A DNA stretch of 37,104 bases from Escherichia coli (GTDB lineage: Bacteria > Pseudomonadota > Gammaproteobacteria > Enterobacterales > Enterobacteriaceae), in assembly GCF_003334315.1 (NCBI RefSeq), contig NZ_QOWR01000047.1; one strand, written 5' to 3'. Position 1 is the first letter of the stretch. Each line of letters starts with the position of its first letter. Below, one piece after another: positions 1,103-35,285 of this stretch. The notes beneath the pieces are model-generated. The model worked only from the letters and a program-made list of their open reading frames with translations. It searched no databases and was not told the DNA's origin. A program made the position numbers and the translations under genes.

Positions 1103-1770
1103 TCCTTCCTCAATCTTGAGTAACCCCGTCGTTGAAGGGTTACTCAATTCATCCTGATTATACGCACTGCCATGGTGCAACTGCTTCAAATTAAAACTCT
1201 GGTCTGACTTCAAATAATTATCATATTATTTATTTGCGTAACGGGATATCAGAAAAAGATATTTTCCTCATTAATTTATTAGGATGTTTACATCGGATTT
1301 GTGATTAAGCGTGGTATTATTTATTAGCGAAATGTTTCTCTCTTGATTTTTTGCTCATTCATCAATTTTTCTTATTTTAAATTTTCAATCCCTTTGGGGA
1401 TTGACTTCTCTTTAGGGTAATTGATAGCCGTTAACTGACTGTTTTATGAGAAAAAGTGATATAACTTTTTATTCATTGCATAGCAAAAAATGTGATATTG
1501 CACGCACTATGTAATAACTTCTCCCACTGGCCTGGAACAACTGAACTTATTGAACTATGTTAGAAACTACGCCAGTTTAAGTATCTGCCTGAACTGGCAA
1601 GGTTAAGCACAATGATATATCGGCGCGTATTCCGTTGCATAAGTGTGCAAAAAAAGTGGAAGACGTATCGAGATTTGTGCGTCTGATCGAGACATGTTTA
1701 AAAATGGCTTGCCATAATTAACGTTGTATGTGATAACAGATTTCGGGTTAAACGAGGTACAGTTCTGTTT

Positions 1771-1914
1771 ATGTGTGGCATTTTCAGTAAAGAAGTCCTG
1801 AGTAAACACGTTGACGTTGAATACCGCTTCTCTGCCGAGCCTTATATTGGTGCCTCATGCAGTAATGTGTCAGTTTTATCTATGTTATGCCTGCGGGCGA
1901 AGAAAACAATCTAA
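1771..1914 (+). CDS. yobF: YobF, 47-aa small protein co-transcribed with cspC
   Basis: Manual translation from ATG 1771: [47 protein letters not shown]-stop (TAA 1912-1914); 12 nt upstream of cspC. Confidence 0.85.
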
Positions 1915-1926
1915 GGAATTTTTCAA

Positions 1927-2136
1927 ATGGCAAAGATTAAAGGTCAGGTTAAGTGGTTCAACGAGTCTAAAGGTTTTGGCTTCATTACTCCGGCTGATGG
2001 CAGCAAAGACGTGTTCGTACACTTCTCCGCTATCCAGGGTAATGGCTTCAAAACTCTGGCTGAAGGTCAGAACGTTGAGTTCGAAATTCAGGACGGCCAG
2101 AAAGGTCCGGCAGCTGTTAACGTAACAGCTATCTGA
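1927..2136 (+). CDS. cspC: cold-shock-domain protein CspC (69 aa)
   Basis: ORF track protein [37 protein letters not shown]... carries the RNP1 motif KGFGFI of the CspA family. Confidence 0.95.
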
Positions 2137-2182
2137 TCGAATCCACTGATCTGAAGTGTGAATACGCTTCAATCTCGCTATA

Positions 2183-2208
2183 AAGCCTCGTCGAATGCGA
2201 GGCTTTTT
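2183..2208 (+). terminator. intrinsic terminator downstream of cspC
   Basis: Hairpin GCCTCG-loop-CGAGGC followed by TTTTT (2204-2208). Confidence 0.6.
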
Positions 2209-2301
2209 ACTATGCTTTATCTTCGCTCCTGGCGTTCGGATATTTGCCCGCCGCGTGATTCGCGTTACACTTGCGGCCTTTAGTATCCTGCCGGAGTTGT
2301 C

Positions 2302-7314: not shown

Positions 7315-7776
7315 TTGCTACCTCCTTTATTATCGTTAACACCTCAACGTGCCAGATGTATTTTTGAATCGTCGTCCACAATCGAATCGATTCAGATAAG
7401 GGCTACAACCAAAAACCCCTGCGTTTCGCGATTTATTTTAGATATCGAAAAAATTATTTTATGTGATGAAGATCCGTAATTTAACTTTCGATTAGCAGAA
7501 ATTTCGAAAGGTAAAATATCCTTGTCACATTCGTTTGCAAAGGAAGGTAAATCTTTGCCAAATCAGAGGCGTCTCTGATATGTTTAACTCCCGTTTAACA
7601 ACCATGGAGTATAGGGCAGTAGCCCGCAGTATGGATCGTCACCGACGTCATTTCAGCATCAGGCCTTTTAACGCCTGCCTTTCTGGCACTCTATGCCGCA
7701 CCTTTCGTTTGCATTTTGTCGTTACGCCTGCATTATTTCTGGCGTCGAATAGCTATTCCTTAAGCAGGAGCTTGTC

Positions 7777-9333
7777 ATGGAATTCTTAATGGACCCCTCA
7801 ATTTGGGCGGGGCTACTCACGCTTGTTGTTCTCGAAATTGTGCTGGGTATCGATAACCTGGTCTTCATCGCCATTCTTGCTGACAAACTGCCGCCAAAAC
7901 AACGCGATAAAGCGCGTTTGCTGGGGTTATCACTGGCGCTGATTATGCGTCTGGGGCTGCTGTCGCTGATTTCATGGATGGTCACGCTGACCAAACCGCT
8001 ATTTACCGTCATGGATTTCTCCTTCTCCGGACGCGACCTGATTATGTTGTTCGGGGGGATATTCTTGCTGTTCAAAGCAACAACCGAACTGCATGAACGG
8101 CTGGAAAACCGCGATCATGATTCCGGCCACGGTAAAGGCTACGCCAGTTTCTGGGTGGTCGTCACACAGATTGTCATCCTTGACGCCGTCTTCTCGTTGG
8201 ATGCGGTAATTACTGCAGTAGGGATGGTTAACCATCTGCCGGTGATGATGGCGGCGGTAGTGATTGCGATGGCGGTTATGTTGCTGGCATCCAAACCGCT
8301 GACGCGATTCGTTAACCAGCACCCCACGGTGGTGGTGCTCTGTCTGAGCTTCCTGTTAATGATTGGTCTGAGTCTGGTGGCAGAAGGTTTCGGTTTCCAC
8401 ATTCCGAAAGGTTACCTGTATGCCGCGATTGGCTTCTCGATCATCATCGAAGTGTTTAACCAGATTGCGCGTCGCAACTTTATTCGTCACCAGTCGACTT
8501 TGCCGCTGCGAGCGCGTACTGCCGATGCCATCCTGCGTTTGATGGGCGGGAAACGTCAGGCCAATGTTCAGCACGATGCCGATAACCCGATGCCGATGCC
8601 GATCCCGGAAGGTGCATTTGCCGAAGAAGAACGTTACATGATTAACGGCGTACTGACGCTGGCGTCGCGTTCTCTGCGCGGGATCATGACGCCGCGCGGT
8701 GAAATAAGCTGGGTTGACGCTAATCTCGGGGTCGATGAAATCCGCGAGCAGCTGCTCTCCTCACCGCACAGCCTGTTCCCGGTATGTCGCGGTGAACTGG
8801 ATGAAATCATCGGAATCGTACGTGCTAAAGAACTGCTGGTGGCGCTGGAAGAGGGCGTTGATGTGGCGGCGATTGCTTCGGCGTCTCCGGCGATTATCGT
8901 CCCGGAAACCCTCGATCCGATCAACCTGCTGGGCGTGCTGCGTCGCGCTCGCGGGAGCTTTGTTATCGTGACCAACGAGTTTGGTGTGGTACAAGGCTTG
9001 GTCACGCCGCTGGATGTGCTGGAAGCCATTGCGGGTGAATTCCCGGACGCTGACGAAACGCCGGAAATCATTACTGATGGTGACGGCTGGCTGGTAAAAG
9101 GCGGTACAGATTTGCATGCCTTGCAGCAGGCGCTTGATGTTGAGCACCTTGCCGATGACGATGATATCGCGACGGTCGCGGGCCTGGTGATCTCGGCAAA
9201 TGGTCACATTCCCCGTGTGGGCGATGTGATTGATGTAGGGCCACTGCATATCACCATCATTGAAGCCAATGATTATCGTGTTGATCTGGTTCGCATTGTT
9301 AAAGAGCAACCGGCGCACGATGAAGATGAGTAA
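7777..9333 (+). CDS. yoaE: TerC-family membrane protein with CBS and CorC/HlyC domains, YoaE
   Basis: 518-aa ORF; N-terminal polytopic membrane domain plus soluble C-terminal half; divergent from manX as in K-12. Confidence 0.9.
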
Positions 9334-30107: not shown

Positions 30108-30356
30108 ATGGGCATTCTGTCATGGATTATTTTTGGGCTTATTGCCGGTATTCTGGCGAAGTGGATCATGCCAGGTAAAGATGGCGGTGGATTCTTTATG
30201 ACTATCCTGCTGGGGATAGTCGGTGCCGTAGTCGGCGGATGGATCAGCACGCTGTTTGGCTTTGGTAAAGTCGATGGCTTCAATTTTGGCAGCTTCGTGG
30301 TTGCCGTTATTGGTGCGATTGTCGTGCTATTTATCTACAGGAAGATTAAAAGTTAA
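30108..30356 (+). CDS. yeaQ: GlsB/YeaQ/YmgE-family small membrane protein YeaQ
   Basis: 82 aa with Gly-rich TM helices (MGILSWIIFGLIAGILAKWIMPG...). Confidence 0.85.
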   Translation: MGILSWIIFGLIAGILAKWIMPGKDGGGFFMTILLGIVGAVVGGWISTLFGFGKVDGFNFGSFVVAVIGAIVVLFIYRKIKS

Positions 30357-30369
30357 CGCTTAAATTGCA

Positions 30370-30405
30370 CAAAGGCTGCACACAGGCAGCCTTTGCTATT
30401 TTTTA
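30370..30405 (+). terminator. intrinsic terminator downstream of yeaQ
   Basis: CAAAGGCTGC-ACACAG-GCAGCCTTTG stem-loop followed by TATTTTTT. Confidence 0.6.
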
Positions 30406-30414
30406 GAGGTGACG

Positions 30415-30489
30415 TTACCACCATCCCAGCTCAGTGCCGAGTACGACAATAATCGCCACACCCATCATAATAATCGTTGTTTTTTTCAT
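30415..30489 (-). CDS. yoaJ: YoaJ, 24-aa hydrophobic peptide
   Basis: Manual minus-strand translation MKKTTIIMMGVAIIVVLGTELGWW-stop; too short for the ORF track. Confidence 0.7.
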   Translation of the reverse strand: MKKTTIIMMGVAIIVVLGTELGWW

Positions 30490-30491
30490 CT

Positions 30492-30590
30492 TTATGCTCC
30501 CGGGGCAGCATAGCCGCCAATAAAAAACCATGCTAAAAATACGACCGCTGTAATGAAGATTACAACCGGAAAAATAATACCGATTCGCAT
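30492..30590 (-). CDS. yoaK: YoaK, 32-aa hydrophobic peptide
   Basis: Manual minus-strand translation MRIGIIFPVVIFITAVVFLAWFFIGGYAAPGA-stop, immediately upstream of yoaJ. Confidence 0.7.
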   Translation of the reverse strand: MRIGIIFPVVIFITAVVFLAWFFIGGYAAPGA

Positions 30591-30622
30591 GTTATCACCA
30601 ATCAAAAGGATGTGAATACGCC

Positions 30623-31648
30623 TCAGGAATGTAGCGCTGGATGCGCGACAAAAGGTGTTTTCTGTTTGTGTTTTTTCTCCTGATACATCGCAATATCGGC
30701 AGCATGCAGGGCACTGTCTGCATCGGTTGTTTCAGGATCGACTTCTACTATGCCAAGACTGGCACCGGGATAATACAAATCAACATCACCTAAGTGATAT
30801 TCTCCACGTATTTGCTGCTGAATGCGTTCTCGCAGCGACGAAATATCCGCATTCTCGTTGTTTAGTGAAACAACTAAAAACTCATCACCGCCGAGACGAC
30901 CAATAACTTCGCCATTTTGCTGGAGCGTATTAAGGCGCTCGCCAACCTGAATGAGAAACAGATCGCCACTATTATGACCAAAACGATCATTGATTAATTT
31001 GAAGTTATCCAGATCGATAAACGCGATCATTATCTTATGGTTAAGATGCCGGGCGAGGGAAAACAGTGTCGTCAGATTTTCAAAAATCGCCCGCCGATTC
31101 GGTAGCCCGGTTAACGAGTCGGTATACGATTGCGCAATCAGCGCAGCATTGGCTTCGCGCAGCTGTTCAACCAGTGCCTCTTTTTGAATATATTGTGCAA
31201 TCAGTCCGGCGAATAACTGTAAAACCTGTTCCGCGCGTTCACTCCACTGGCGCTTCTCACTGCTGGCGGCGCAAAGCGTGCCATAGAATGATCCATCCGG
31301 TAAGTGAATTGGCGTGCTCAGAAATGTGGTGATGCCAAGATTGCGTGCCGCAATACAGTCACCCCAACGGTCGGGGACTTCATCGCTGAAAAAGCAGTTT
31401 TCATCAATGGCGCGTTTGCATAACGAGTAATCCCACGAGACGGTAAAATTCTCCGGGATGTGCATTTTCTGGCTGTTACGGGCAAACATAATATGCTGCA
31501 GGCGCGCTTCGACATCCACTTTGGTCAGGTAGGTTGATTCCATATCAGTGACCATTTCCAGCATCTCCAGAAGCTGTCGGACCAGACTTTCCAGTGACTG
31601 TTCTTTGGCAAGGGATTGCGAGACGCGGGCGATAATCTGATCTGACAC
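30623..31648 (-). CDS. dgcP: diguanylate cyclase DgcP (YeaP), GAF-GGDEF
   Basis: GGDEF motif (RLGGDEFLVVSL); start placed at GTG (plus 31646-31648) giving 341 aa rather than the 384-aa maximum. Confidence 0.85.
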   Translation of the reverse strand: MSDQIIARVSQSLAKEQSLESLVRQLLEMLEMVTDMESTYLTKVDVEARLQHIMFARNSQKMHIPENFTVSWDYSLCKRAIDENCFFSDEVPDRWGDCIAARNLGITTFLSTPIHLPDGSFYGTLCAASSEKRQWSERAEQVLQLFAGLIAQYIQKEALVEQLREANAALIAQSYTDSLTGLPNRRAIFENLTTLFSLARHLNHKIMIAFIDLDNFKLINDRFGHNSGDLFLIQVGERLNTLQQNGEVIGRLGGDEFLVVSLNNENADISSLRERIQQQIRGEYHLGDVDLYYPGASLGIVEVDPETTDADSALHAADIAMYQEKKHKQKTPFVAHPALHS

Positions 31649-35180: not shown

Positions 35181-35285
35181 ATGAACGATCAAATGTTTGT
35201 CGAGACACTGATTATCACGTCATCGTTTTTTGCCATTGCTGTTGTACTGGTTTTGTCCGTTCTTCTTATCGAACGGACCGGCTAG
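35181..35285 (+). CDS. yoaI: YoaI, 34-aa hydrophobic peptide
   Basis: Manual translation [34 protein letters not shown]-stop (TAG 35283-35285). Confidence 0.7.

Follow-up and report, generated by a model that had tools for sequence, protein, structure and literature searches.

The yoaK and yoaJ genes of Escherichia coli, which stand in tandem behind the diguanylate cyclase gene dgcP, are almost certainly real, co-expressed genes for small membrane proteins and correspond to the pair already known in this species. They were recovered from a 37,104-nt stretch of DNA (contig NZ_QOWR01000047.1, assembly GCF_003334315.1), referred to below as the window, to which all positions refer unless another record is named. 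Across the family, YoaK genes are placed behind two kinds of genes, namely chromosomal diguanylate cyclases (GAF-GGDEF and MASE5-GGDEF) and the repressors of lambdoid and Rac-like prophages.

Layout and Identity of the Locus

Read along the minus strand, the locus consists of dgcP, a 32-nt spacer, yoaK, the dinucleotide AG, yoaJ and a 10-bp hairpin (30395-30370), followed by the convergent yeaQ gene. Its main features are the following.

30108-30356, plus strand: yeaQ, convergent with yoaK-yoaJ
30370-30404, both strands: hairpin and T-run with a 10-bp stem (30370-30395), common to both converging units
30415-30489, minus strand: yoaJ coding sequence (24 aa, ATG...TAA) encoding MKKTTIIMMGVAIIVVLGTELGWW, which begins with MKK, ends with GWW and has one transmembrane helix
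30490-30491, minus strand: 2-nt spacer AG between the yoaK stop codon (30494-30492) and the yoaJ ATG (30489-30487)
30492-30590, minus strand: yoaK coding sequence (32 aa) encoding MRIGIIFPVVIFITAVVFLAWFFIGGYAAPGA, with a single transmembrane helix and the short C-terminal tail GGYAAPGA
30623-31648, minus strand: dgcP (RefSeq), a GAF-GGDEF diguanylate cyclase gene (TIGR00254 GGDEF, 126 bits) with its stop codon at 30625-30623, 32 nt upstream of yoaK

An earlier, sequence-only reading of this DNA had described two minus-strand micro-ORFs separated by 2 nt, and its coordinates, lengths, strand and gap proved exact upon ORF reading and translation. The neighbours are also those that it had named, the pair being located between dgcP and yeaQ, just past the yeaQ terminator hairpin. 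It had further predicted one transmembrane helix per peptide; the best 19-residue Kyte-Doolittle values amount to 1.95 for YoaJ and 2.79 for YoaK, and the prediction holds since each peptide has the hydrophobicity for one helix and lacks the length for a second.

The window belongs to the E. coli chromosome. Indeed, an 801-nt stretch around the pair is found at 95-100% identity in 5419 of the 5426 complete E. coli genomes, in which the pair is present as a single copy at a fixed position. In strain ATCC 8739, the sequence of which is identical at the locus, RefSeq places yoaJ, as "protein YoaJ", and yoaK, as "YoaK family small membrane protein", at the very same positions. Both peptides score above the cut-offs of the NCBIfam equivalog models over their entire length, YoaJ with 60.4 bits against NF011343 (cut-off 54, residues 1-24 of 24) and YoaK with 69.1 bits against NF033821 (cut-off 32, residues 1-32 of 32). 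The names yoaJ and yoaK, given from the letters alone, are thus right. Exact copies of the peptides are present in the public protein collection as YOAJ_ECOLI and YoaK, and the comparison with YoaK (NF033821, PF28021) and YoaJ (NF011343, YOAJ_ECOLI) of E. coli K-12 reveals the same locus with zero differences. With the RefSeq annotation, the model scores and the exact database copies, both genes are therefore already known and annotated; their recovery is a rediscovery, and there is nothing new in the pair itself.

Several published observations bear on the two peptides. An HA-MBP-YoaJ fusion displays integral membrane association according to PMC4597795, which also cites Fontaine et al. 2011 as confirming an N-in/C-out topology of YoaJ. 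The MKK N-terminus of YoaJ, followed by its hydrophobic core, is consistent with such a single-pass topology. Diamide treatment of the cells raises YoaJ (Hemm 2010, cited in PMC12542507). Immunoblots detect chromosomally tagged YoaK, an "uncharacterized" protein that belongs to the more weakly expressed members of the first small-protein set (bioRxiv 10.1101/511675). Both YoaJ and YoaK are listed as RseP class II substrates, cleaved in some assays and not in all of them (PMC10470546). In a RyhB ribosome-profiling screen, yoaK changed about 2-fold and figures as a novel candidate that is not marked as verified (PMC4666370). DgcP is counted among the relatively strongly expressed cyclases and is under vegetative control (PMC5635695). 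Both YoaJ and YoaK are classed as small membrane proteins, and PMC9769844 states that their functions "remain unknown". The literature search yielded no paper linking YoaK to phages or to cyclases.

Conservation of the Two Reading Frames

Relatives of the locus were collected with YeaQ as anchor (80 loci, one genome per species) and searched by tblastn with both peptides. Both were found in 30 of these 80 loci, which makes 31 loci with both frames open once the E. coli reference is included. At least five genera are represented, among them Escherichia, Citrobacter, Salmonella (arizonae), Enterobacter and Leclercia, together with some MAGs, and the pair lies in tandem on the strand opposite yeaQ in every one of the 31 loci. 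All but one of the 31 loci have a yoaK of 32 codons, the exception having 33; yoaJ has 24 codons in all 31, with an ATG start in 23 and a GTG start in 7. In Citrobacter sedlakii NBRC 105722, A6 replaces A7 after the yoaJ start, which leaves the ATG out of frame with KTTLIM...GWW. This is either a homopolymer sequencing error or a real loss or alternative start.

Variable alignment columns at the first, second and third codon positions number 13, 7 and 30 for yoaK and 14, 9 and 21 for yoaJ, the third position being dominant in both genes. Pooled Nei-Gojobori dN/dS is 0.049 for yoaK (28 distinct sequences) and 0.162 for yoaJ (30 distinct sequences), and these values are approximate because dS is near saturation (pS about 0.65) and the pairwise sums are not phylogenetically independent. 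Shifted-frame controls over the two alignments range from 1.2 to 4.9, with 2.7 and 4.9 for yoaK, and the contrast between true and shifted frames is unambiguous despite the approximate ratios. The synonymous-site pattern, on which the sequence-only reading had made its proposal depend, is thus present in related genomes. At the protein level, 19 of the 32 YoaK residues are invariant among 21 distinct proteins. In YoaJ, M1, K3, T4, T5, A12, G18, G22 and W24 are invariant, and W23 nearly so.

Translation Signals and the yoaK-yoaJ Junction

A Shine-Dalgarno sequence stands before each gene, a point that the sequence-only reading had left for checking.

30594-30599, minus strand: yoaK Shine-Dalgarno sequence GGTGAT, 3 nt before the ATG; predicted duplex with the 16S 3' end of -8.8 kcal/mol, in the top 5% of window ATGs
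30497-30501, minus strand: yoaJ Shine-Dalgarno sequence GGGAG, 7 nt before the ATG; predicted duplex of -6.6 kcal/mol, ranking within the top 14% of window ATGs

The motif GGTGAT, GGTGAA or GGTGGT precedes yoaK in most of the 31 loci, and the yoaJ Shine-Dalgarno sequence is embedded in the yoaK codons for P30, G31 and A32. From the yoaK stop to the yoaJ start, the distance is 2 nt in 15 loci, 0 nt (TAAATG or TAAGTG) in another 15 and -1 nt in one. Three further loci found outside the yeaQ-anchored set (L084, L091 and L092) display a 4-nt overlap (ATGA or GTGA), so that the distance remains between -4 and +2 nt in all 34 loci carrying both genes. Such a spacing fits the usual geometry of termination-reinitiation, and translational coupling of the two genes may be inferred from it, in agreement with the location of the yoaJ Shine-Dalgarno sequence within yoaK.

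Transcription Context

The hairpin between the converging units folds with -17.4 kcal/mol on the plus strand (z = -4.4) and with -18.9 kcal/mol on the minus strand. On the plus strand, it is followed by a T-run ending about 10 nt short of the yoaJ stop codon and, owing to this T-run after the stem, it is a clear intrinsic terminator of yeaQ. On the minus strand, the stem lies 19 nt past the yoaJ stop and is followed by no more than a weak U tract. A hairpin with A- and T-runs on both sides is also found at the same position in other genera.

Upstream of the pair, a terminator scan detected no minus-strand terminator between dgcP and yoaK, and 30 of the 31 yeaQ-anchored loci have dgcP or another GGDEF gene ahead of the pair on the same strand, at a distance of 11-47 nt, or of 32-47 nt as counted for a DgcP-like GAF-GGDEF gene. 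A yeaP(dgcP)-yoaK-yoaJ operon is also predicted from RNA-seq data in OperomeDB (PMC4620388). The three genes probably form one operon with dgcP as its first gene. The exception is Salmonella enterica subsp. arizonae, which lacks dgcP and has kept yoaK-yoaJ, with yoaF divergent 196 nt upstream; the last ~30 nt of dgcP, including CTTTTGTCG, still stand in front of the pair. In this locus, the pair has thus survived the loss of the cyclase gene.

A candidate for an additional start of transcription lies within the 3' end of dgcP.

30626-30655, minus strand: candidate internal promoter upstream of yoaK, CTTTTGTC(G/A) followed by a TAT(T/G)CT or TACACT-like element

The CTTTTGTC...TATTCT element aligns across the 31 loci and is kept in S. 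arizonae without dgcP. It could be an internal promoter, and it is treated as a candidate only since the hexamer spacing is poor in E. coli and the promoter scan does not exceed chance (2 matches found for 3.9 expected). In Salmonella, the element may be a mere relic of the dgcP 3' end. The one minus-strand match of the scan, at 30616-30589, was set aside as it runs across the start codon of yoaK and occurs in E. coli only.

YoaK behind Chromosomal Diguanylate Cyclases

Searching 1.84 billion representative proteins with a profile of 21 YoaK sequences gave 51 matches (E <= 1e-3). Many of them are the same gene called with a frameshift or from a wrong start, and several are true divergent homologues. 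Many cluster representatives of the large library are frameshifted or read-through forms of yoaK, some of them fused in frame to yoaJ (P0017-P0020, P0029, P0032, P0037, P0048-P0055 and P0066). These entries probably stem from assembly errors in T- and A-rich stretches, and they make the family look more diverse than it is.

Among the chromosomal YoaK copies found outside the yeaQ-anchored set, all those flanked by enough sequence come after a GGDEF gene, at no more than about 60 nt from it. The cyclase genes located directly before YoaK in these loci are given below with their positions in the respective sequences.

L084, 1740-2525: GGDEF gene
L086, 1883-3135: MASE5-GGDEF gene, with no YoaJ in the locus
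L091-L093, 1969-3144: GAF-GGDEF gene of the DgcP type
L151, 1430-2600: GAF-GGDEF gene of the DgcP type

The last of these stands for 25 IMG/VR contig ends (L151-175); their YoaK peptides are all identical, and they represent host flank beside a prophage integrase. A YoaJ-like ORF follows YoaK in L084 and in L091 and L092 (MRKTTIIMLIVAVVAVAGTQLGWW and MKKSTILMIIIAVIALAGVQFGWW), and no such ORF was found after YoaK in L086. The YoaJ copy of L091, which has a Klebsiella-like neighbourhood, reaches 43.5 bits and stays below the NF011343 cut-off of 54.

These loci (L084, L086, L091-L093 and L151) have no yeaQ nearby, and the constant partner of the family on chromosomes is thus the cyclase gene and not yeaQ. 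Conserved synteny, put forward in the sequence-only reading for a pair flanked by dgcP and yeaQ, is therefore kept on the dgcP side, whereas yeaQ is not the constant neighbour. The absence of the pair from Klebsiella, Serratia and Yersinia, as suggested by the yeaQ-anchored scan, turned out to be partly wrong, since the pair adjoins dgcP in loci without yeaQ; the apparent absence in Klebsiella-type genomes is an artefact of yeaQ anchoring, and the pair travels with dgcP. The L086 locus, with YoaK and without YoaJ, also suggests that YoaK can act alone and that a hetero-oligomer of both peptides is not obligatory.

YoaK behind Prophage Repressors

A second branch of the family is carried by lambdoid and Rac-like prophages, in which YoaK-like ORFs (31-36 aa) follow the gene for a CI/RacR-like repressor at a distance of 3-48 nt, opposite cro/cII or ydaS/ydaT. 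A scan of IMG/VR for YoaK returned 89 contigs.

L094 (HK106), L083, L085, L087-L090, L096-L150 and L177: phage loci with a YoaK-family ORF
NC_019768 (HK106), 30470-30568, complement (L094 2492-2590): YoaK ORF between cI and hicAB/PL

The 32-codon ORF of HK106 encodes MRIGIVFPILVFIVAMGFMAWFIIDGYATPSG, which is identical to E. coli YoaK at 20 of 32 positions (62%). The same ORF is found in mEp234 and mEp506, and it is unannotated in the records of all three phages. In 51 of the 61 phage-type loci, a repressor-like ORF ends at most 172 nt upstream on the same strand. These repressor-like ORFs fall into four sequence classes, all of which match PHROG families of transcriptional repressors or regulators. 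Toxin-antitoxin or defence-like genes are often found next to them, HicAB and a HipA-like kinase being examples.

The phage copies evolve under purifying selection, with dN/dS values of 0.07 and 0.06 in two sub-branches and above 2 in the controls. They exceed the cut-off of the NCBIfam YoaK model, with 46.7 to 67.8 bits, and PGAP labels phage-type copies in six E. coli genomes as "YoaK family small membrane protein". P8, A15, W21, F22, Y27 and A28 of YoaK are invariant across the phage and chromosomal branches, the pattern of the family being FP...A...WF..GGYA.P. No YoaJ partner was found in the phage YoaK loci, nor was a GGDEF gene found next to the phage-borne copies, and none of the PHROGs and PADLOC models matches phage YoaK.

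The position of these genes can be compared with that of rexAB in lambda. Phage YoaK genes of HK106, mEp234 and Rac-like prophages likewise lie between cI and PL in the same orientation, and they likewise encode predicted membrane proteins; however, phage YoaK has no sequence similarity to RexB. Unlike genes of the lambda rexAB type, the yoaK gene of the window is not in a prophage.

Proposed Mechanism and Alternative Explanations

In the chromosomal setting, the pair would be transcribed with dgcP and possibly also from an internal promoter. Ribosomes ending yoaK would re-initiate on yoaJ, by which the two peptides would be made together in fixed proportion. YoaK and YoaJ, with their basic N-termini (MR- and MKK-, respectively), would each insert as one N-in/C-out helix, in parallel. 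The most conserved residues would be located at the periplasmic end of the helix, in WFFxGGYxxPG of YoaK and GTxLGWW of YoaJ, with clustered invariant residues W21, F22, G25, G26, Y27, P30 and G31 in the former and G18, G22 and W24 in the latter. With the conserved residues of both peptides at this same end, the likeliest arrangement would be a small hetero-oligomer in which YoaK and YoaJ lie next to each other. This unit would then bind a larger partner, either residing in the inner membrane or recruited to the membrane, and tune it in the manner of MgrB, AcrZ and MgtS.

MgrB-PhoQ, AcrZ-AcrB, MgtS-MgtA and CydX-CydAB are examples of small inner-membrane regulator proteins of E. coli and their partners, and CydX and KdpF are co-transcribed with theirs. 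Like MgrB, AcrZ, MgtS and CydX, YoaK and YoaJ have fewer than 50 aa, a single transmembrane helix and an ORF led by its own Shine-Dalgarno sequence; they differ in being two different peptides in tandem and in having a partner that is only a candidate. Judging from the gene neighbourhood, the DgcP c-di-GMP pathway may tentatively be named as the leading candidate, owing to the recurrent GGDEF neighbour. This link is weakened by S. arizonae, which keeps yoaK-yoaJ without dgcP, and by the phage YoaK copies, which have neither a GGDEF neighbour nor YoaJ. DgcP carries GAF and GGDEF domains and is not known to have a membrane segment. A wider proposal, covering both branches, is that YoaK is a mobile one-helix module. 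The host YoaK (with YoaJ) would control a membrane-linked c-di-GMP step of the DgcP type or a shared membrane target, and the prophage YoaK, expressed from the lysogen repressor operon, would act on the same target for lysogenic conversion or superinfection exclusion. This proposal is doubtful as a whole and is offered as a possibility.

The phage branch and the Salmonella locus indicate that YoaK can work without an adjoining cyclase gene and without YoaJ, which makes a cyclase-independent role a serious rival. According to this explanation, YoaK would be a stand-alone membrane peptide apart from c-di-GMP, serving for example in superinfection exclusion or in protection from envelope stress; YoaJ would be an enterobacterial add-on and the site behind dgcP a convenient means of expression. 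A large branch of YoaK indeed lies directly after the prophage repressor, in the position of rexAB in lambda, which is where exclusion genes expressed in the lysogen usually sit. The repressor-like ORFs within 172 nt in 51 of 61 phage loci, their four classes, the toxin-antitoxin and defence-like neighbours (HicAB, HipA-like kinase), the purifying selection on the phage copies (dN/dS 0.06 to 0.07) and the retention of yoaK-yoaJ in Salmonella without dgcP all point in the same direction. On the other hand, matches to PADLOC defence models and to PHROG families amount to zero, and the presence of GGDEF genes of two architectures before the chromosomal copies is hard to call a coincidence. Altogether, such a role is possible and rather unlikely.

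The size and hydrophobicity of the peptides resemble those of Hok, Ldr, Ibs and TisB, and the pair might accordingly be read as a type I toxin-like locus, in which membrane-damaging hydrophobic peptides would be silenced by an antisense RNA. Several Hok toxins are cleaved by RseP, as are YoaJ and YoaK in part of the assays (PMC10470546), and a promoter-like match lies antisense to yoaJ at 30443-30471. This match, however, is within chance (2 found for 3.9 expected), and no antitoxin RNA or other RNA family of Rfam is detected at the locus. As neither Rfam nor the promoter scan at the locus provides the antisense RNA of a type I toxin-antitoxin system, the pair was not assigned to this class. 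The ordinary Shine-Dalgarno sequences, the operon behind an enzyme gene and the occurrence as one copy, always in the same place, in 5419 of 5426 E. coli genomes also argue against toxins, as does the over-production of HA-MBP- and 3xFLAG-tagged YoaJ and YoaK in RseP studies, the available portions of which do not mention toxicity (PMC10470546, PMC4597795). A toxin locus is thus very improbable. It is extremely improbable that yoaK is a mere leader or upstream ORF controlling yoaJ or the dgcP mRNA, or that both frames are chance ORFs of an AT-rich spacer. Such tiny, closely spaced ORFs are admittedly common here, 21 ORFs of at least 20 aa overlapping a 700-nt stretch, but the conservation data refute both versions. 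The amino acids of YoaK themselves are conserved (19 of 32 invariant, dN/dS 0.049), homologues exist without a downstream yoaJ, phage homologues are up to 62% identical to E. coli YoaK, and the tagged YoaK protein accumulates (bioRxiv 10.1101/511675). Membership among leader peptides was likewise rejected, the peptide being highly conserved, the spacer reduced to 2 nt and no structure being found between yoaK and yoaJ.

Other Features of the Window

Besides the pair, the window displays several known elements. Positions 10-124 are 97% identical to the terminal 115 nt of IS1, in reverse orientation, and the window thus seems to start within an IS1 copy that lies upstream of mgrB. In ATCC 8739, an IS1 is found in manX instead, and the window lacks that copy. 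Two known RNA features were recognized by Rfam models above the gathering score, and other catalogued small-protein genes were located through the annotation of ATCC 8739 and the offset of the alignment, which gives approximate positions.

1751-2211, plus strand: cspA-type thermoregulator element over yobF-cspC, 135.7 bits
21261-21346, plus strand: small RNA sroD, 115.2 bits
about 597-740: mgrB
about 1771-1914: yobF
about 7633-7791: yoaL
about 35181-35285: yoaI

Among the small proteins encoded in the window, MgrB is the regulator of PhoQ and YoaI is a membrane protein of 34 aa.

Significance

Genes of only 24 and 32 codons can be recovered from the reading of raw sequence. The family-wide contexts of YoaK, after a GGDEF gene on chromosomes and after the repressor gene in prophages, offer a modest, testable lead towards its function.
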